Shown in pieces: positions 1-11,196 of a DNA stretch of 11,196 bases. The DNA comes from Leptolyngbyaceae cyanobacterium (lineage in GTDB: Bacteria > Cyanobacteriota > Cyanobacteriia > Phormidesmidales > Phormidesmidaceae), in NCBI GenBank assembly GCA_965263355.1, contig CBDHHL010000020.1, positions 1 through 11,196 on the forward strand, written 5' to 3'. Position 1 is the stretch's first letter; every line of letters starts with the position of its first letter. Both the position numbers and the translations under genes were made by a program. Under the pieces are notes generated by a model, which was given only the letters and a program-made list of their open reading frames with translations, ran no database searches and was not told the origin of the DNA.

Positions 1-837
1 GGGATGTACCGATGTATCGGTATCGGTTTCGGTATCGGCAGTATCGGTGCTTTTTTGGGGTATCGGTAAAAAATGGCCGATACTTTACCGATACTTTTCT
101 AATATTATGCTCTATTACTTGTCTTTACAATTGTACCAATTAATAATTGTTCAATCATCATATTTATTATTCAATAATGACGAATATTCAATATATATTA
201 ATTATATAATAATGTAGAGGACAGATATATATACGGCTCGTAATTCTAAGTCTTAAATTAAATCTTACTCAATATTATGATGTAACAACTAACAAGCAGG
301 TAGTGACCAGCGAGTAGCGACGTAGTTACTCACAACTTCATAAGCTACTTAACTGAAATGGTAATTAAGAATCTAGTAAACAAAAAGTCAAAAACAATAT
401 ATGTAGAAACTTGAAAGTAGAAACTAGAAAGTTATAAAGTAAAATGCTCTCACTTCTCAGATGATCTGATCGGATGTTAATCTTATCTTAATAACTTCAT
501 TGTTGATCTTTTTTAATAAAAGAAATTTAAAATGAATATATTTGATATTTCATTAACCAATTAAATGGTATTATTATTCTAATAGACTAATTTGAGTAAT
601 TTCTATAGCTAATCCACTTTTTTTTTACAAAAATCTTGCAGTGGTAGCTAGCTGTTTTCAATGATTAGGTAACAAATTCTCTTCTAATTAATTATCAATT
701 TATTATAAAATTAAAAGTATCGGGGTATCGGTATCGGTACCGGTTAAGTATCGGCCTATTTCAAGTATCGGTGTATCGGTATCGGTGAAATACTGGGTAT
801 CGGTATCGGCCAAAAAAATGGTATTGGTACACCCCTA
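1..837. mobile_element. Non-autonomous hAT-type DNA transposon (MITE); left end probably clipped by about 2 bp at the window edge
   Basis: GGGATGTACCGAT (1-13) is the reverse complement of ATTGGTACACCCC (823-835) with 2 mismatches, and the right end closes with ...CCCCTA (837), the TAGGG-type terminus of animal hAT/Ac elements. Dense subterminal GTATCG(G) repeats lie at about 14-94 and 717-810 around an AT-rich non-coding core. The 8-bp TSD cannot be checked because the left flank is outside the window. Confidence 0.8.
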
Positions 838-1028
838 CATGAGACATATCAGATAGAATTAGAGGAAAGCTCCGGAAAAGAACGGTTGCAACCACAGTTG
901 TTACAGTACTCATGAATCTTGGAAGTACAAGGTAACCTGTTATATATCTGTGATCCAGCACATAGAAAAGTATCATGAATTTTTCATTCTTCCGAAAAGC
1001 CGGAGCCACAAAACGGGGGACAAGAAAA

Positions 1029-1059
<31 letters not shown>

Positions 1060-1602
1060 GAAAGTAAGAATTATAGCTATATGCAAAACTGCTATTACCT
1101 GTCACCTGTCATTCATACCTTTTATTTTACAATCTCGTAACTCATTCAATCCATCAACCTTTACATGGCAATGTTGGGACACAACTAACTATAATTTGTA
1201 TCAATACTTTTCATTGACATATAAGAAATGTTCACCGACTACTGGTAGGATGAAGGACATCTCTAACCATGATGTAAGCAACAAAGAATGTTGAATGTAG
1301 GAATTTGACAGAACAACGCCAAAAAATAGTAACATCTCCAAAGTACAAATGTACAATTATTAAACGCTTTAATCCTTGCTCATAAAAAACCCTATTTTAG
1401 TGCTCAAACCAAATACGTAATGACCAGGACATATGCTACACCAACAGTGTGTATGCTCTTACGGACATAAGCATGTTGTACGTATGCACTGTGCAGCATG
1501 CTCTGTAAAAATTATATGCATGCATGCACCATGCACTTGCAAATAACAGGAGGGTACATGCATGCTCCAGGCATTCAATGCCATGTCACAACCCTACGCA
1601 TA

Positions 1603-1862
1603 TGTAGTGCCATGAGGTTTTGGCAACGCTACAGCCAGAAGACTGGACAACACTGCAGCCGTAAGGTTTGGAAACGGTGCGACAACACAAGCAGAGAAGT
1701 GCACACAAATAACCTACACGTCAGATTTGACAACGTGTAGTGCCATAAGGTTTGGCAACGCTGCAGCCACAAGACTTGGCAACCTACAGCCATAAGGTTT
1801 GGCAACAACACACGGCGAATGACACACACACAGAAAAACTACATGTTAGAATTGACAATGTG
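1603..1862. repeat. Higher-order minisatellite: about 133-bp units built from 22-24-bp subunits GCCA(TAAGGTT)TGGCAACRCTRCA
   Basis: TGTAGTGCCAT..GGTTT(T)GGCAACGCT.CAGCCA.AAGACT starts at 1603 and again at 1736. Each unit ends with CTACA.GT.AGA.TTGACAA. A decayed partial copy follows near 1970-2000. Confidence 0.8.
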
Positions 1863-2489
1863 GCGCTCTGCAGACATCAGACCAGACAACATTGCAAGGC
1901 ATCCAGCGTACAGAGCATGACACACACACAGACCCTGTGCACACATATGAATTGATACCATCGCATGCTACGTGTAGTGGTACTGGCTGTTTTGACAAAT
2001 ATCTTATGTGAGCCACTCAGGTGGAATGTTCCATCACTGGGTTACATTCAGTTGCACTTTGGCGGTGCTCCTTGGATAATGAAGTGCTATACTTATTCCA
2101 TCACTGCCTGTTGTATGTTAGCGAAATTAGGCGCCCTGTATTCGTGGCACATTTTTTCAAAACCGTTCCCAAGAGGCTGTGCCTTCGGCATGGCCATTTA
2201 GTACATAAACTCATTAGTTGGACTGTGACAACATGCACGCAAAAGGGGCCTCTGCACCAAGTGTACAGGTGCGCGCATACACTATGCCAATCTGGCTACA
2301 AATATGCGTAGCCAGATTAAGTGCTTCTCTAATATTTATCCTGGTTCACTTCCAATCATCGGGTAAACAATCAGAATGCATTGTCAATTATATAGAATTA
2401 TCATACAAATTGTTGAAATTACGCAATGCAATCACATCCATGCTGTCTTATATAGATAATTTAATTCCTTGACATGAAAATTCCATGCC

Positions 2490-2673
2490 ACAGTTTACAC
2501 ACATTCTTTACCTTGTGTTTTTATTCATTATATGTGTTTTGTGTGTATTTTACGACTCCATCCATGTGCTAAACGTTATGTTCTTTTCAGAGCCATATCT
2601 AGTTCTATTCATTATTAAGGTATCAAAGCAAGTCTATAAAGTGTTGTGATGAAGCAGAATATTTCAGTTGAAG
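2490..2673 (+). repeat. Left inverted repeat (184 bp)
   Basis: ACAGTTTACACACATTC...ATTTCAGTTGAAG is the perfect complement of 10879-11062. Confidence 0.97.
2635..2669 (+). promoter_or_regulatory. Candidate Pol II core promoter (TATA + Inr) in the left repeat, facing inward
   Basis: TATAAAG at 2635-2641 and TCAGTT at 2664-2669 with A+1 at 2666. The TATA box starts at -31, the canonical metazoan spacing. Confidence 0.55.
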
Positions 2674-2729
2674 ATTAACGAGTCTCGGGGACCGGGGGAG
2701 CGTGTATCTGGGGAATGTGGAGGAAACCA

Positions 2730-2821
2730 CACCACAGACTGACTCCGTGCCATCTGTAGATAGAGCCATTTCATGCTTCAATAAGCATATCTACAGACGG
2801 CACTTCCGTCAGTCTGTGGTG
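2730..2821. other. Long fold-back hairpin (14 bp + 16 bp stems)
   Basis: CACCACAGACTGAC (2730-2743) pairs with GTCAGTCTGTGGTG (2808-2821). GTGCCATCTGTAGATA (2747-2762) pairs with TATCTACAGACGGCAC (2788-2803) with one mismatch, which is G-U on the minus strand. The 25-nt loop holds a TGCTT/AAGCA mini-stem. Confidence 0.9.
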
Positions 2822-3064
2822 AAAATGCCTTATTTCCATGCGCCGTGAGGTTCCAGAGGGAGGTGGAAGTACACGCGGTGCCCGTGTCCCGACACTCAAA
2901 AGACGAGACGATCGACGGTCCCCTAATTTGTATGAAATGCACAAAAGGGAAACCGGTGAGATGAGCGGTAACGCTCCGAGAGTGGTTAAGCAGGCGGTAC
3001 AAAAAGAGGGTCAAGAATGGCGGCCCACCTGAGACGCTACGGACGAGCCGGCACCACAGGGTGC

Positions 3065-3426
3065 GCCCGGAAGAGGACGAAGACTGGGGGGCAGCAAGCA
3101 GGAGGGCGGCGGAAGAGCAGAGCCCCCAAAAAACCGGCGAAAGCGGAGCGGTAAAAACCGCAGAGCGGTAAAAACCGCGGAGCGGTAAAAACCGCGGAGC
3201 GGTAAAAATCGCAGGCGTACCGCAAGGCGGCACAAAGAGCGAGCCGCCCGGAAGTGGGTGAAGACTGGGGGGCAGCAAGCATGAGGGCGGCGGAAGAGCA
3301 GAGCCCCCAAAAAACCGGTGAAAGCGGAGCGATAAAAACCGCGGAGCGGTAAAAACCGCGGAGCGGTAAAAACCGCGGAGCGGTAAAAATCGCAGGCGAA
3401 CCGCAAGGCGGCACAAAGAGCGAGCC
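3065..3426. repeat. Tandem duplication 2 x 181 bp, each unit containing four 17-bp hairpin-forming repeats GCGGT-AAAA-ACCGC-GGA
   Basis: Units at 3065-3245 and 3246-3426 are near identical. The 17-mers start at 3148, 3165, 3182, 3199 and at 3329, 3346, 3363, 3380. Confidence 0.95.
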
Positions 3427-3527
3427 GGCCACCCAAGTAACCGGGAAGGGAAGGTTGGGTGGGAAAAAAGGAGGGCGTCGAAACAGACGATCAAGGACAC
3501 CAAAACAGGGAGCGAAAAGAAGGCCCT

Positions 3528-3665
3528 GGGGTACCGGAAAAGGGAGACCTGGGCGTCAAAATAGCCGGTCAGAAAAAGTCGTGGCGGAGCGGGAGAGGGG
3601 TACCGGAAACCGGATACCTGGGCGTCAAAATAGCCGGCCAGAAAAAGACTTGGCGGAGTGGGAGA
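3528..3665. repeat. Tandem repeat 2 x 69 bp
   Basis: GGGGTACCGGAAA...ACCTGGGCGTCAAAATAGCCGG.CAGAAAAAG...TGGCGGAG.GGGAGA at 3528-3596 and 3597-3665. Confidence 0.93.
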
Positions 3666-4286
3666 CGGGTAGCCAAGAGAGAGCAAACTTGTAGAGAGAA
3701 AGAGCAGCCGGACCTGGCGGCTAGGTCGGAGCAGAAGGAGAAGGAACAAGGAATGATAAGGAACCACCGACCGAAGAAGCAACCAAGCAGCTGTCGGTCT
3801 TGGGGGAACACATACCAAAAGAAGCGAAGCCGGAGACCGGCTAGCGGAAAACATTGGAAGTAAAATATTGTAAAATACCATCAGGGATAAGGACGACACC
3901 AAGCAACAGTCGAACATATATTTATAACAGGGCTTGCAATTAGCACATTTAGCAGCATGTACATTGAAGAGACAAACGTAAGTCTAGTCCTTACATAGGC
4001 GGTCTAAGAAACGGTGCATAGAGAGCCGTATGAAAAGCATCTTACAGTAGGGGCATATATATTTCACGCCAATACAAGTGTGAAATGGTCTGACATATGT
4101 TGTGGAGCATAATATATAGTTTTTTGAAGAACAACTTCAGCAGACATAGGGTAGAAGACCACCCTATTAAGAGAAACACACAAAAATAAATAAGAGGTAC
4201 ATACAATTTGTATATTGTGTACCTGGCACAGTACGAACAGGAAGGATCCTACGGGATTGTTATTGCACACAAAATAAACGAAACGA

Positions 4287-4505
4287 CAAAGAACAAGGAA
4301 TTTACATAAGCAATTCGAGGCATCATCAAAAGAATAAGCGGTCTAAGAACCGTAAAACGGTACAGAATATACATACGGAAACGACACAGAATATTTATAA
4401 CAAAGAACAAAGTATTTACATAAAGGCAATTTGGGGTACCATCAAAAGAACAAGCGGCCTAATAACCGTAATATGGTACATAATTATATACATAATTACA
4501 CGGAA
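4287..4505. repeat. Diverged tandem duplication, period about 114 bp
   Basis: CAAAGAACAA...TTTACATAA..GCAATT...CATCAAAAGAA.AAGCGG.CTAA.AACCGTAA...GGTACA starts at 4287 and 4401. An isolated GCGGTCTAAGAA fragment lies at 3999-4010. Confidence 0.85.
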
Positions 4506-4719
4506 TCTAGTAGAACATGATTGGTACAAGCCTTGTAATCAGAACCCAAGGATGAGAGACAATATTTTATCCTCTCCCTCCCCCTGGTTGCAACCCACAA
4601 CAAGAATTTATAATGGTAAGGGACAAGTGAAGGAAGGGATGAACGGAAGCCCAGAAGTCGCGTGCACCAATAAGGGACATATTCGCCCTGCGAGTCCAAA
4701 GAATGTCATAGGCCACAGG

Positions 4720-4916
4720 CAGAGCTGGGCAGTATTGAAATACATTGTAGTAAATACTGTATCGAAACAATTGTACTGCAGTGATACACTGTATTGAAAT
4801 ACATTCTGCAACTTGTATGCAATCGCTGTATTTAAATACCTTGAAGCATATATAATGGAATGCCTTTCTAAATACTTCTTCCATACTGCATGCATTAAAT
4901 ATAAACAGAAGCTCTG
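4720..4916. mobile_element. Decayed hAT-like MITE fragment nested in the large element
   Basis: Starts CAGAGCTGGGCAGTATT, a CAG-type hAT terminus. Quasi-palindromic GTATT(G/T)AAATAC motifs occur at 4732, 4791 and 4828. Only a partial counter-terminus (AGCTCTG, 4910-4916) is present. Confidence 0.5.
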
Positions 4917-7900
4917 TGGATTGATCAGCGAACCACAGGCTCAAACACTGCAACGCAGGCACATGTTGCATCCGGACACTACGAAATAACACTGTTCTCT
5001 ATCCTCTCGTATGCTATATTTCCCAAGTGAAAAATGTTTATTTAAATGCCGTTAATATACACATTGTACATGTGTACTTCGTACAATACAACGTTATCAT
5101 ATCAGGCGTTGCTCTGTCTACGTTAAAAACGCGTTGTAACTGCATCATGGTTAGATATGTCCCCCAGCCGATCATTATTCAGTTCGTGTTTCATCAAGTA
5201 TCTTAAAATTAGAGCTGAATGTCAAACATTGGTGTCATTTTGTCACACGGCACAGCGAAAAACGCCATACGATATCTGATAAGCTACAAGTTTAAACGAA
5301 TTCTATTACCAGTAGGAATGTAATAAACGACAGGCATATCAGTTATATTAGTGACCTACTGTAGAAGTGAACTAATTTCATGTCTAATATTCCGGTCATT
5401 GTCAAAGTTATAATGGATTGAGTAGGTGATAGGATTATTAGAGCAACTTTGACATTTTTTACCCCGTTGGATCTCAAATGCAGGGTAACTGTTTACTAGG
5501 TGTTATTATTTATTATGCGTCATTTATTGACGAAGGAAGCAATGAATGTTGCGTAAGGTAAAATCACTCAAGCAAGGGAAGTCTGTCACGTATCGTCGCC
5601 CGAATACCGTAGGTTCTACCATCTCCGTCTAGCGGTATGGGTAAATTTATTCAAATTGGAATCAATTGAGTAAAATGATGTGGAAATCGAAAGACAATGA
5701 AAACAGCGTATGATTTGTCATCCTGAAACAAGTTTGTGAATAGGGTGGTAGCAAGAAGAACTACAGGTCTTAGTGTCGGAAATTCATCGTCGGCAGAGCA
5801 ATGAAATACGACTGCCAGTTTTGAGGGCTTCCATTATGACGATCATGATGACTATGGCCCTGATTGAGAAACAGTCTCTCAATGTACGAACTATGCACGC
5901 CAATGTCGAAGTGCTTCTCTGTTGTATCGAAGTCGATATGTTTAATGAATTAACACAGCGCTCGTGCATCTGTCAAGAACTGGATTTAAAAGTTTGGAAA
6001 TATTCATTAAAACTCTTTTCCTTTAGTGAATCATTTATATAGAACGAAAACGTACTTAATGTAGCTGTTGTGTGCGTAATTTATCTAATCATTAAAATAT
6101 TAGATCACATACTCTAACTAATTCAGTTATCCGTTACATGTTAGTAAAAGCAAACGTTAGCTACTCATTTTGAAACATTGAAAATAGTACGCCTTAGCGT
6201 AGAACTGTGATGATAAGAAAAAGGGAAGTCTCTGAGAACAACGCATCGTAAGTGAAGGGACACAATCGTCAGGCAACGGAACGGGACTCCTGCCCAAGGA
6301 ATAACAGTTACGCAACCCCATATCAGAAGCTCAGTAGAGCAATATGCCTGCAAGAATGTATAGTGCAAGACAACGAAGGTATACATTGCACTATGGATTG
6401 ATACTGAATTAGTGTTCAAGAGTAAATATATCGGCAGAAGTGAAACAGTACCATGTAACTCGAATAATTGTGTCAAAGTTAAGTAGCTATTGTATAAATT
6501 CGAATAACTGTCGAAACCGAATTAATGGTCAATAATATTCAATCGATCAGAACTATCAATGTACTTAAGTTATTCAAAAATGTTAACCACAATTAATTTA
6601 GGTCAAAAATAAGAAAACTCGACACCTACAAACAAAAAGAGACAAGGCGACAGGCCTAGGGATAACTGAATGAATGTATTGATATTAGGTTCATCAAGTA
6701 TTATGAAAGACCTGAAAAGGATTTAAATATAAAAACTAAATGAAACGAGAGATTGTACTTTTATTTCATCACAAACTCGAAAATGGATGCACATATTCTG
6801 TGTAACATAAGATATATTGTTCGAAGGAGAAGGTTTGGGCTCACGACTTGGCAACTGGGAGATGCCAATCGTGCTCTCTAATCTTATAGGTACACGTGCA
6901 AAAGAAATGAACCTCGCTGTACGTGTGCTGTACAAAACTTCAACATTTCGATCTATTCACAGGTAACAACGAAAGTAGGCGCACACCGTCTGCAATTCAA
7001 TAGTCTCTGGAATGACCTAAAACTCATAGTTACTGAGTCGTTGTTCTCCGAGAAGGAAGAGGACGTAGAAGTGTAACGCAAGGAAACATTCAGAGCTACT
7101 AGGCATGCCATATGAACCTCACTAGTATAACGTGCGTGGAGCGCATCCAAGCAGCACAAAAGGACAGGAAAAAACGCCAGATATATTGTTTACTGAACAG
7201 AACACAATAAACGAAAAAGGTACGGTGACATATAAGTTGCAGAGAACACAAGATGCTTAAGTCACTAAGGTGCGTACGCCACGAGAAAAGAAGAAGTACG
7301 CAGCAATAAAACAAACTCTGCAAAGTCTAACGTGAGGATTACAATAGTGGCAATCAGGTGGCACGTACGGCTCGTAAAGAAAAATGAATAGTAACGATAA
7401 ACACGTGTATTTGGGAAGAAAAACGAGCAAGGAATCTCAGTTACACAAGGACGTAAGCTTTGAAAAATTGTCGTAGGCACATAAAGTTGAGAGTTGCAAG
7501 GTGTCCAGCACCGGAACCATCAATGAAAAAACCCATCCGAGTTGTGTTAGGGCCCCCTGTAGCCTCAGGAAGGAGTCTGGTAGTCCCATCTTCTCAGAGA
7601 TTTTCGGCTAGGCAGGGCAATGCTAGGGAGAAAGGAATGATAAGTACACGAACCATAGAACATTAGTGAGCATGTCGGTTGTAATTAGGGACAAGCAAAA
7701 GTATGGCATAAGGAGAATTATTTGTAATTACGGACAAGGCAATTCATGAGTGAGGACAACGAGAATTTATTTGGCGGAAATAAGGACAAACTAATTGTAT
7801 GGGAAGCAGGGAATGCAGTAACAGGAGTAACTGGGGTCGATTATGAAACAATGACAATGTTGAAGAGTTTGTGTTATCAGCGCTAACCCAAGCAATGAGC

Positions 7901-8467
7901 ATAAGTAGCATTCCGATAGTTGCCAGTAAAAACAGAATTCCATTTAGGGAACACGTCTATACGTATCATGAGTGCCTTGTACAACAAATTTAATTAATAC
8001 TGAACAGGAAGTAGACATAACCGGATTGCTAACCTATAGCCACGCGTAAGTATGAGTTCGGTTGTCCCATGTAATAAGGGAAGACTGATAAAGAACGTAC
8101 GTAACTCTTAGTCAAGGCATTCTAGGCATTCTAGGCAACAAAGGAAATTCGCCCGATTCAACTCAACAACCGAAGATTGTAGAGGTGAATCAGTATTCGA
8201 ATTCCACAGTGTCCAATATCAGTATTAATTCCACCACTCTATTGAACAGAGCAAAACTTCCACGCAGTTGTATGTATTGAGAAGAAGGGATAAGTTGTGC
8301 AAGGCATGCACAGATCTTATCCGAAAGGTAATTTATATGACCGGATCGTCTGACGGCCGAATGAAATTGCGCCAGCCAATGAATTGTCTAAGAAGAAAAT
8401 TAACGTAGTCACAGTAATTCAAAAAAGAAACAGTTAACAAAAGGAACACGTGGAACTGTTCTTCTGT

Positions 8468-9408
8468 CTAGAGTGGAGCGTGGACGTACAGGCAAAAGTG
8501 ATCGACACACATGCAAGAACGTTTTTTAATTTGGGACACTGGAACACATGAAGTCTGTCCATGTAAAAGATATATGTCATACAATGGGGAATGACGTAAA
8601 AGACTAAAAGTTGTTTGAAAGAAAATGCAGACCTCTAAGGTGATTATGAGTATCATTGACCTTTGTAACAATGTAATGTATTCATTTGCCAATCTTGTTG
8701 TAGCTTTCTACAACTCCAGTTACCTGTTCAGAGTATAGGCAGAGGCAGGCGACAAGGGGGCGGTGAAGGCGCGCGGGCGTGACCGCTCCCATCCATTTGT
8801 AAGTGTGGAGGACAGGTAGGTACGAGCGGGAAGCCTCCACATAGACGAGGAAGCCTTCAGTGCCCCGGCCCGGACCTTAGTACCCGTGCCTGTCAAGGAA
8901 GAAACATGCATCAGAGACAAAAAAGACGGTGAAACCACCGTCAGTTAGTTTATAGTGGGGCAGACAGGTAAGAAACAGGCCTGAGTACGTGTAAAATATG
9001 CGTCACATGAATGAATGTAGCAACGGAATGTGCGCCGCCTTATTGAGCGCTATAAGATTGCAGTGAGTAAGAACAAAGGATAACGTGTAATGAGTACCAA
9101 GAATAATTTTCATAAAAGACCCAATTACAATTGTATGAAACATAGAAGTACCTGTGGTTGGTTCGTGTAACCTGCCAGAGGGCACACATGTGGCACAGGT
9201 GGAATGTGGATGCCAGAAGTCTTCCGTAATTGTCCGGGCATCACACCAAGCGGTATGCTTGCACGTTACCATGGTATAAGCGCGACAAACCTGGAAATAG
9301 ATAGAGAGGCGAGCATTAGCATTAAAAAGATCAAGGAGATGTGCCTACCAGTATCCGGGTAGGCACTGATCTGAATGCTTTAAAATCTATTTCCAGCCTT
9401 TGTACCAT
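8468..9408 (-). CDS. Putative spliced orphan protein of about 166 aa; exons 9408-9349, 9290-9152, 8889-8724, 8603-8468
   Basis: GT-AG introns of 58, 262 and 120 nt with pyrimidine tracts; branch-like CTAAT and CTAAC motifs in the first two. All three joins keep frame (501 nt): MVQRLEIDFKAFRSVPTRIL|VCRAYTMVTCKHTAWCD...HSTCATC...EPTT|GTGTKVRAG...AYTLN|SLLRHSP...CMCVDHFCLYVHAPL*. No family recognised. An alternative acceptor at 9050 would give an 81-aa product ending at 9003. Confidence 0.3.
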
Positions 9409-9475
9409 AGTATCAAAGGAAAAAGCCCTGAAACGATCCACAAAAACTTCCTATACCAAAAACAGTATTTGAGTA

Positions 9476-9786
9476 ACATGTTGCAGAGGGCGTATAATAT
9501 GGAGCGAGAAAAATATGACGGCTTGGCCCTGCTCGTCCGTCACACCAAAGACGGGATAGATGAGTTGGCTATTACTGTAGAGGGCGTATAACATTACTGT
9601 AGAGGGCGTATAATAAGAGCGATACAAACATGACGGCTTGGCCGTGCTGGTCCCGGCACACCAAAGACGGGACAGATGAGTTGTCTATGTGTAGGGCGTA
9701 TAAGAGCGAGCTATAAAGACATGACGGTTTGGCCGTGCTCGTTCAGGCATTACAAGGACGATGTAGTGCCCTATACTGCAACATGT
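9476..9786. repeat. Three diverged 90-115-bp tandem units bracketed by an 11-bp inverted repeat
   Basis: AGGGCGTATAA..GAGCGA..ATGACGG(C/T)TTGGCC.TGCT.GT units start at about 9485, 9601 and 9693. An internal 22-bp duplication lies at 9571-9613. ACATGTTGCAG (9476-9486) is the reverse complement of CTGCAACATGT (9776-9786). Confidence 0.85.
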
Positions 9787-10102
9787 GTCACGCCCTGCAT
9801 CCGATTCGTCGACGAATGTCGCATTTCTTGACGCCCCAGGCTCGAGATCGTTCGTAAGTAAGCATGATACGTATCATTATAGTCTAGTCAGTCTCGTCAA
9901 GTCAGAAGTCAGTTGGTTGCCTTGCAACACTGTCCGCCTGGGACGTGTGCGACCTAGGAGAGTGGAGAAATGATGCGTTGTGTGAGGGGCGACAAAAAAG
10001 CTTTCACAGGGTACTTGGCGGGCGTATAACTAGATTACACGCTATTACCTCACTGGATGCAGGGCGGTCAGGGCAAGTAGTAATGCGTAGGCGTCAAGGA
10101 CG

Positions 10103-10729
10103 CTAGACTGTAGGAGTTGCCGAAGTTAAAACGCCTGCCGGGCGGTCTAATTCTTGTAGACGAAGTAAAGGGGGAGAGAGAATATGTTTCAAGACCGCCC
10201 GTCTCAACAGGTACAAAATTGCCCAAGCCAACAAAGGACCGGCCCAGCCGTCCAAGTCGCCATAGATAAAACTTATAAACGAAGAATTGCAGCTGTAGAC
10301 TGAAGAATTATCAATAAAAGCAAGAGAATTGTATCGCAGAAGACAAAGGGTTACGGCTGTACAGGTTAATAAGGTACTCTTCTTAGAATTCTCTTCTCTC
10401 TCTCTCCCCCCCCCCCCCCCCCAAAGGAAAGGGGGCTGTGACAGCAACCATGAGCAATTTTCGCGTGGGGAACAGGCAAAGGGGATCCAAACGGAGGCCC
10501 CCTGAACGACCCCGCCCCAAGGTTGCGAGCCTTGAGGAAGGAGAGAACAGGGAACACACACGAAAGGACCAAGCCGAACCCCACAGGGAAAAAGCTCATC
10601 GAGGCTAAGGATGAGGATGGTCGCCACCATCAACACCCCAAAGCGCCTCTCGTAACCCTTACTGAAGAAACGAAGCACACAGTGTCGTAGATAAAACAAG
10701 ACCAAACAACAAAGGTAAACTTACACCAT
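10103..10729 (-). CDS. Possible spliced orphan ORF of about 187 aa (ATG GT at 10729-10725, intron 10724-10662, exon 10661-10103)
   Basis: A strong donor (GTAAGT, 10724) and acceptor (TTTCTTCAG, 10662) splice ATG-GT in frame onto the 200-aa ORF of the track (MVKGYERRFGVLMVATILILSL...). The call is weakened because the frame crosses a G17 run and a GA microsatellite and matches no family I recognise. Confidence 0.2.
10395..10422. repeat. (TC)n tract followed by a C17 homopolymer
   Basis: TCTCTCTCTCT followed by a C run at 10406-10422. Confidence 0.9.
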
Positions 10730-10878
10730 TAACACAAGGATTTATGTATGAAAAGGGGTGAGGACACCCATATCTAGGTATCGAAACTGTCGGATTGACT
10801 GCATGGCGTAAGAAAGTTTTTGACTCACCATAAGGAAGGCTGGAGAGCTGCGCACATGCGGCAGAGACGAGTGTAAGC

Positions 10879-11062
10879 CTTCAACTGAAATATTCTGCTT
10901 CATCACAACACTTTATAGACTTGCTTTGATACCTTAATAATGAATAGAACTAGATATGGCTCTGAAAAGAACATAACGTTTAGCACATGGATGGAGTCGT
11001 AAAATACACACAAAACACATATAATGAATAAAAACACAAGGTAAAGAATGTGTGTAAACTGT
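10879..11062 (-). repeat. Right inverted repeat (184 bp)
   Basis: Exact reverse complement of 2490-2673. Confidence 0.97.
10883..10917 (-). promoter_or_regulatory. Candidate Pol II core promoter (TATA + Inr) in the right repeat, facing inward
   Basis: Mirror copy of the left promoter: TATAAAG at 10917-10911 and Inr A+1 at 10886. It is followed 58 nt downstream by a consensus donor ATG|GTGAGT (10828). Confidence 0.6.
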
Positions 11063-11196
11063 CAATCTCATTCATATGCGATTACCCATAAAACTTTAGC
11101 ATGTAATTGAATTGTCTGCAATGAATGAACATAGTGTCAGGGTTTCAAGCAAAGTATTGTATTTGTTACGCATAACATTTGCGAATCCGAATCAAT

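Follow-up and report, generated by a model that had tools for sequence, protein, structure and literature searches.

A probable non-autonomous DIRS1-type family with no detectable gene, represented by an end-clipped copy

The stretch of DNA analysed here (contig CBDHHL010000020.1, positions 1 to 11,196 of the forward strand, 11,196 nt at its full length; hereafter the window) carries an element between positions 2490 and 11062. We hold with good confidence that this element is an end-clipped copy of a multi-copy family of ~8.8 kb that has DIRS1-type ends, an internal complementary region (ICR) and no detectable gene, and that was likely copied from RNA and inserted by the reverse transcriptase (RT) and tyrosine recombinase (YR) of an autonomous DIRS partner. 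As no gag, RT or YR gene was found in it, the element classes, as judged from its sequence, as a large non-autonomous DIRS1-type element and not as an autonomous member. An initial annotation had already proposed a large, non-autonomous, multi-copy family, which is borne out by high contig depth, a 46-member cluster of open reading frames (ORFs) and the lack of a gene. It had suggested that this could be an unclassified family with terminal inverted repeats (TIRs), a suggestion that gives way to the DIRS1-type end architecture, which is not that of a cut-and-paste TIR element. DIRS1-type inverted terminal repeats (ITRs) were among the candidates it listed, but these were dismissed for lack of RT and YR motifs even though the ends have this architecture.

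The two arms of the window copy are, as first annotated, exact reverse complements of one another (184 of 184 nt), with 8205 nt between them. The match ends abruptly on both sides in a self-BLAST comparison, which found no long direct terminal repeat in the window. The arms and their junctions are as follows.

2489..2490, no strand: flank junction; an element-free contig goes on with 177 other letters and rejoins at 11063
2490..2673, minus strand: right (3′) ITR, of which just the inner 184 nt are present; missing are the outer 131-140 nt, including the right extension, and the cut is at the equivalent base of the left ITR
10879..11062, minus strand: left (5′) ITR, of which just the inner 184 nt are present; other copies have a further 104-113 nt on the outside
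11062..11063, no strand: the other flank junction, from contig comparison

Although these 184-bp repeats had been taken for the termini of the element, they are the inner part of longer, asymmetric ends. All six contigs that lie on the ITR start (4 of 4 in X1, depths 29-1076; 2 of 2 in X2, depths 101-892) extend beyond 2489 into one common sequence. ORFs of other copies place the real family ends 104-113 nt (5′) and 131-140 nt (3′) farther out than the window arms, giving a left ITR of 288-297 nt and a full family length of 8808-8826 nt. No copy of the outward-extension motif was found inside the window (8 matches at 3 mismatches, a number reached by 7 of 200 shuffles), as would be expected of the conserved part of the ITR. 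A CACAG-type terminus, which we take to be CMC/Transib-like, was considered and dropped because the ITR runs on past 2489.

The interior is far deeper in contigs than the flanks. In X1, an interior contig of 556 nt (5 differences and 1 gap relative to the window) has a depth of 451, and flank contigs have depths of ~5; in X2, interior contigs of 174-322 nt with 0-1 differences reach depths of 938-1632, compared with 7-14 for flank contigs. These ratios suggest some tens to about a hundred family copies, where contig depth is not equal to copy number and contigs drop rare variants, so that gaps prove nothing. No RNA data set containing the window was listed and a third run, X3, gave 0 contigs on it, neither of which bears on expression. 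In one cluster of interior ORFs, the 46 members each lie on a contig of their own, and these contigs may stem from more than one assembly. When a single read-through frame of 7281-10880 served as query, 30 ORFs were retrieved, all of which map to the element. The interior had earlier been described as old-looking, but it did not decay after insertion: it is common to many copies, and single contigs are 0-1% off the window.

The ends of the family are also spelled out inside it, in an ICR just inside the 3′ ITR with the following parts.

2730..2831, minus strand: ICR, 102 nt; its plus strand reads the end-to-start circle junction; bulged hairpin, with a contig loose end at 2730
2788..2831, minus strand: 44-nt left half of the ICR, the complement of the family 5′ terminus; seen in 17 ORFs of other copies
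2730..2790, minus strand: right ICR half, 61 nt, complementary to the family 3′ terminus; seen in 13 of 13 ORFs entering the 3′ end
2763..2790, minus strand: right extension (rE), 28 nt, complementary to the ICR only
2788..2790, plus strand: TAT, the 3-bp overlap of the ICR halves and putative crossover core, from peptide residue patterns
2773..2788, plus strand: 6-bp mini hairpin at the extreme 3′ tip (rE), a candidate primer structure, from sequence and fold

Seven ORFs that enter the right-hand arm from unique flank start with a peptide equal to the translation of window positions 2790-2831 on the plus strand, which form one arm of the hairpin. Among 19 ORFs covering the 5′ ITR, the left-ICR peptide is present in 16 in one frame and in 1 in another, and the other 2 begin within the ITR; in the 17 ORFs, the left half lies directly inside unique flank or a tandem junction. 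The ORFs of the left-hand arm were predicted beforehand to carry the other arm of the hairpin, and 7 of 7 matched (6 in one frame and 1 in another), with 28 nt extra. Further cluster members at the 3′ end carried the right ICR half in 6 of 6 cases, bringing the total to 13 of 13, and none of 740 shuffled proteins reached a six-residue match to the hairpin frames. The outer parts of the two ITRs are alike in 29 of 34, the outermost stretch in 15 of 20, and a 14-nt block is common to both tips and both ICR halves.

The residues that border the tips bear on where a recombinase would act. All 16 residues that directly precede the 5′ tip are L or I (one being the tandem case P0140) and the next residue outward is variable, whereas the residue preceding the 3′ tip (n = 10) is N in 7 and Y, K and I in 1 each. 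This pattern is consistent with an invariant TAT at the start together with, at the end, a triplet that comes from the target and mostly resembles TAT, with the bases inferred from peptides. In P0140, the rE runs directly into the 5′ tip and then the 5′ interior, which is the junction that the ICR spells. Its upstream residues, compared by eye, resemble a diverged 3′ terminus more than they do the ICR, and P0140 is likely a head-to-tail pair.

The hairpin at 2727-2821 is strongly predicted (z −7.2) and folds alike on both strands (−104.0 and −103.7), within an outer stem at 2680-2897 (z −6.3 and −6.7 for the two strands); the TAT core faces an 11-nt bulge in the plus-strand fold. A decayed nested miniature inverted-repeat transposable element (MITE) had been annotated in the interior. 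The strong hairpin is the ICR and not a MITE, and what is left of that claim is a decayed MITE-like insert near 4719-4916, where only weak end similarity was seen. We dropped both a nested MITE and a pre-miRNA as readings of the hairpin, as it matches the termini and both of its strands fold alike. Adjacent to the ICR, positions 2832-2856 are swapped in other copies (P0052, P0067 and P0077; contig loose end at 2856) with a short stem and GNRA-type loop kept on the plus (cDNA) strand, possibly a conserved structure.

The ends are apparently rewritten copy by copy by a homogenising mechanism, as judged from the peptides that they encode. The 12 ITR peptides from 5′ ends fall into 10 variants and the 10 from 3′ ends into 8, but full-length end pairs were identical within a copy in 4 of 4 cases, compared with 6 of 116 other pairings, where two ends were assigned to the same copy if their contigs were of equal size (a proxy for the same contig). 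P0029, a second, non-matching 5′ end on a 61,337-nt contig, was taken as another copy, and a fifth, partial end pair has in common a variant found in no other compared end. A replication mechanism that homogenises the ends had been one of two explanations initially offered for the perfect repeats, and it is the one that these pairings support.

Three predicted signals lie in the ITRs.

10883..10917, minus strand: inward-directed TATA box with initiator-like motif, at the edge where the left ITR meets the interior; predicted start ~10886
2635..2669, plus strand: predicted antisense promoter, a mirror copy of the preceding motif within the right ITR
2520..2525, minus strand: AATAAA of the right ITR; the cut end follows 30 nt downstream

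Within the window, the strict pattern of TATA box plus initiator-like motif with 31-nt spacing occurs in the two ITRs only; its probability by chance is 0.007 for a 184-mer and 0.0007 for the inner 50 nt of one, with a pattern that was picked after being seen. The position of the motif fits the mRNA of DIRS-1 of Dictyostelium, which is without most of the left repeat. Such an mRNA, with the left repeat rebuilt on the right one, is described in the accessible text of PMC7192593, which also gives a 3′ hairpin as the proposed primer; both DIRS-1 repeats act as promoters according to the accessible text of PMC3950715. Premature 3′ end formation at the AATAAA is only a possibility.

The ends of the family resemble those of DIRS1-like elements in arrangement and size. 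The 28 such elements tabulated in the accessible text of PMC3266345 have ITRs of 66-316 bp, ICR sums of 85-130 bp and more, an rE of 9-75 bp and a common block of at least 10 nt, and the family sizes (ICR 44+61, rE 28 and ITR 288-297) lie inside these ranges. Shared features are ITRs with conserved and divergent parts (184/184 for the inner parts and 29/34 for the outer ones), a two-part ICR just inside the 3′ ITR whose halves are complementary to the 5′ and 3′ termini (from translations), a 28-nt rE, a 3-bp ICR overlap, a 14-nt block in all four end sequences and a promoter-like motif, as a motif only, in both ITRs. In contrast, the family is without gag, RT/RNase H, methyltransferase and recombinase ORFs, it is 8.8 kb long rather than 3.8-6.3 kb (PMC3266345, accessible text) and its window copy is without both tips.

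These likenesses suggest how a family copy may be made. Following the Cappello model as set out in the accessible text of PMC7192593, transcription would start at the inner edge of the left ITR (~10886), the cDNA would fold back and the left ITR would be rebuilt on the right one. The tips would then be rebuilt on the ICR and the ends joined, and a recombinase crossover at the 3-bp core (putatively TAT) would insert the product without a target-site duplication (TSD).

The window copy may have taken another route into the chromosome. A 1420-nt element-free contig connects 2489 with 11063 through 177 other letters; of 585 flank positions, 4 differ between it and the window. A flank paralogue likewise carries similar non-element letters beyond 2489. 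The empty state is ancestral, the copy is polymorphic and the window allele is without 177 bp of the target. No TSD was found at the junctions, as the initial annotation had stated, but its absence is uninformative because the clipped copy replaced 177 bp of target. The copy is without 104-113 nt at its 5′ end and 131-140 nt at its 3′ end, and the same ITR base is cut on both; one extra C at 2489 was possibly retained on the 3′ side, and an extra base at 2518, present in both window arms, is absent from the deepest X1 contig. The cut sits 60-69 nt short of the ICR-pairing part of the ITR, so that such a molecule would be unable to rebuild its tips or to offer a recombinase junction.

We give about even weight, for and against, to an origin of the window copy from a fold-back cDNA intermediate captured by end-joining; what this account and the two alternatives below leave over goes to other routes, for example templated repair. 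The cDNA would have completed fold-back and stopped 60-69 nt before the ICR-pairing part; with no tip rebuilding and no recombinase site, the panhandle would have been joined into a chromosome break, with 177 bp lost. In this account, the simplest one, the arms would have been paired when the molecule was finished or trimmed, which would account for the cut at one ITR base at both ends.

An unlikely but credible alternative is that the recombinase inserted a whole copy within the 177-bp stretch and that both tips and flanking DNA were deleted later. Such deletion would account for the missing target DNA, the cut is in a slippage-prone CA-rich stretch and internal deletions are frequent in the family: P0001, P0012, P0027 and P0116 are rearranged or internally deleted copies, joining 7299 to ~10850, 9057 to 4273, ~10735 to 7907 and 6954 to 3740, respectively, with P0012, P0027 and P0116 exemplifying deletion. 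However, two deletions would have to end at one and the same ITR base, or at neighbouring bases, in a 290-nt repeat whose arms are 8.2 kb apart, and 0 letters at the joint fit on either side. We consider it improbable that, with the family itself real, its clipped copy at this locus is an assembly artefact. The element-free contig is unbroken across the site and neither junction is bridged among the listed contigs, but contigs drop rare variants, the 4 flank differences (of 585 positions) in the element-free contig are what another haplotype would show, and a mis-join would be unlikely to cut both arms at one base.

Between the arms, we found tandem repeats and one long stop-free frame.

2832..10878, minus strand: interior, ~8 kb, with no detectable gene; common to other copies along its length
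3064..3671, no strand: tandem repeats upstream of the ICR, 181 nt twice with inner 17-mers and 69 nt twice; their number varies between copies
9482..9760, no strand: diverged ~115-nt repeats, from self-comparison
2778..3983, minus strand (3983 to 2778): 401-codon stop-free frame in A-poor repetitive DNA; likely no gene

The diverged tandem repeats of the initial annotation were located in four tracts (3064-3427, 3528-3671, 4286-4494 and 9482-9760), and the absence of a recognisable mobility gene that it had reported was upheld by several searches. Six read-through frames contained no Pfam family at E ≤ 1, 27 overlapping sense-strand pieces gave just 3 unrelated weak Pfam matches (E 0.099-0.32), Rfam gave 0 matches at E ≤ 1 in the window and other genetic codes opened no coherent long frame. 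The large protein search covered three of the six sense/antisense frame-halves, so that distant homologues in the remaining frames were sought with Pfam only. All of a further 24 mid-element ORFs map to the window, and none has a precomputed domain. No captured host gene was found with Pfam or among the family ORFs, and the earlier description of the element as cargo-carrying is not sustained. Summed depth at 4489-5610 and 2619-3740 is ~10 times that of the rest of the interior, and these segments are nested or shared high-copy repeats. Further stable local folds were seen at 9690-9839 and 10440-10589 (z ~ −5, 15 shuffles).

The interior might instead hide a gene of many short exons, or the 401-codon frame, which was overlooked when only short ORFs were reported, might encode a real protein and make the family partly coding. 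Downstream of the predicted transcription start there are indeed splice-like signals on the minus strand, namely a donor at 10828 and, at 10724-10662, a clean GT-AG stretch of 63 nt, although a retained intron in a retroelement would require an unspliced template, and the first two predicted exons, joined by eye, reach a stop after 15 codons. The frame exceeds 99.9% of local shuffles in length, and its ATG begins an ORF in several diverged copies. Against this, the copies change frame soon after that ATG, they have long frames in all three sense phases, and support from Pfam and Atlas is absent: an Atlas search left the frame unrecognised (recognition 743, best score 0.79) and one with P0088 gave nothing usable. 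Of its 55 HMMER matches, 54 resemble family copies, the outlier P0091 being repetitive, and its strand is just 11% A. We consider the frame likely spurious, as judged from these sequences, and give little credence to a coding interior.

We rate as very unlikely a DNA-only, Crypton-like tyrosine-recombinase element with an internal copy of its junction that moves as an excised circle. The lack of any RT remnant would suit such an element, but long ITRs that are rewritten in each copy require one end to be copied from the other in every round, and the family agrees with DIRS1-like elements in its rE, in its sizes and in having ITRs with a divergent and a conserved part; no Crypton-like recombinase gene was found in the window with Pfam, a result that a non-autonomous form would give as well. 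A Penelope-like insertion, or a Mutator-like (MULE), foldback, Polinton or densovirus-like element, can be set aside as highly implausible, since none explains the internal copy of the joined ends, the ORFs that read the ends contradict them unless these come from chimeric contigs, and no hammerhead or hallmark protein was found here, even though Penelope pseudo-LTRs (pLTRs) may be inverted, with TATA and initiator motifs, optional tails and cargo in trans (PMC3846280, accessible text). Penelope-like elements resemble the family in having ~200-nt inverted terminal repeats with TATA box and initiator and an optional outer extension, but they are without an ICR and their tail is 30-40 nt, often at one end (accessible text of PMC3846280 and PMC8557442), whereas the extension here is on both ends, 104-140 nt and asymmetric. 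Neither the hammerhead nor the RT/GIY-YIG of these elements was found in the window by Rfam and Pfam. For MULE, foldback and other DDE-type TIR elements, no transposase was found, and the family termini are asymmetric where symmetric ones would be expected. No Polinton or densovirus hallmark (pPolB, integrase, capsid or SF3 helicase) was found in the window frames, other genetic codes included, and the 184-nt arm does not fold into a terminal hairpin (z +1.4).

Some copies are just 38-60% identical in translation, so that the non-coding lineage is split into subfamilies. P0084, P0087 and P0088 have the ICR side in common with the family (P0084 also the inner 3′ ITR) and a different upstream sequence, with no Pfam match in any of the three; this sister family is our best lead to the autonomous partner. 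P0035 and P0144 have an almost equal flank peptide up to the terminus, where one enters by the 3′ end and the other by the 5′ end. They are likely two insertions in opposite orientation, 2-3 nt apart, in one repeat family, and suggest, as read from peptides, a preferred AT-rich target.

Several points weigh against the reading of the window as an end-clipped copy of a gene-less DIRS1-type family. The termini and what lies beyond them were read from translated spurious ORFs of other copies (P-numbered) and not from DNA, so that core and lengths are inferred; the TAT core departs from the NTT usual in DIRS1-like elements (23 of 28 in the accessible text of PMC3266345), and 2 of 10 3′ ends do not fit TAT. 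No autonomous partner was found, as 0 of 92 family ORFs had a gag, RT or YR family in Pfam, and the 401-codon frame is longer than local shuffles would lead one to expect (1 in 2000 reach 390). The mRNA of DIRS-1 is also without almost all of the right repeat, which conflicts with our reading of the AATAAA, and a truncated DIRS-1 construct was reverse transcribed in trans but yielded no resistant clones (both from the accessible text of PMC7192593). For the window copy, no contig among those listed from either run bridges the flank-ITR junction, and sampled words of the window were present in two runs of one sample at 0.66 and 0.60. For the fold-back account, poly(A) is absent at the cut, just 1 nt is shared between the cut and the family continuation, another copy (P0138) is also deleted in the CA-rich stretch, and no second symmetrically clipped copy was seen.

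Gene-less relatives of retrotransposons have precedents. Large retrotransposon derivatives (LARDs) are large non-coding derivatives of LTR retrotransposons that have direct LTRs, use integrase and are moved in trans. The family likewise keeps a multi-kb non-coding interior in many copies, but its ends are inverted and accompanied by an ICR, in contrast to the direct LTRs and integrase of LARDs. TOC1 of Chlamydomonas reinhardtii, an active non-autonomous DIRS retrotransposon (bioRxiv 10.1101/2022.06.16.496473, accessible text), likewise belongs to the DIRS order and is non-autonomous yet active, but it is a PAT-group element with split direct repeats (PMC3266345, accessible text) instead of ITRs and an ICR. 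TOC1 was the only non-autonomous DIRS element in the literature searched, and no description of a gene-less ITR/ICR-type DIRS family was found there (the accessible text of PMC9210276, PMC8498967, PMC8969392 and PMC5633606; Repbase, Dfam, subscription journals and supplements lay outside this search), so that novelty is not established.

The DNA is eukaryotic in appearance, and its source is probably an animal with symbionts. Beyond the element, flank positions 1-840 are a high-depth, MITE-like repeat with GTATCG-rich inverted ends, 1603-1862 hold a diverged 133-nt duplication, and 1234-1274 match element positions 5143-5183 in inverted orientation (41 nt, 78%). The hairpin-arm pattern led to 26 loci in metagenome contigs, none of which is related by blastn or tblastx, and the ITR patterns gave 0 matches in viral and metagenome contigs. 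Six metagenome loci (L002, L003, L009, L014, L016 and L022) have one common 94-nt sequence with inverted 10-nt ends that is unrelated to the element.

We propose, tentatively, that the family represents a LARD-like class of ITR/ICR-type DIRS elements that are gene-less, bigger than their autonomous partners and old enough to have formed subfamilies, and that would undergo the full DIRS cycle of reverse transcription, ICR end repair and recombinase insertion in trans. The window copy would then preserve, as a fossil in the chromosome, the first fold-back intermediate that the model proposes, its cut point marking the end of the template RNA or cDNA. The DIRS cycle is only partly proven: according to the accessible text of PMC7192593, its primer has yet to be identified, attempts to amplify the circle junction failed and no completion of the cycle in trans was seen for a truncated element. 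If the proposal is true, a young family that is gene-less yet present in tens of near-identical copies would be natural evidence for the whole cycle in trans, and its copies allow template-switch points, the crossover core and target preference to be mapped by sequence alone. Families of this kind escape protein-based annotation of transposable elements, and annotation by TIRs would wrongly class them as DNA transposons. Clipping of both arms at the same base is a prediction of the fold-back step; the window copy may preserve an intermediate of that kind, and the family makes the steps of a partly unproven cycle testable.

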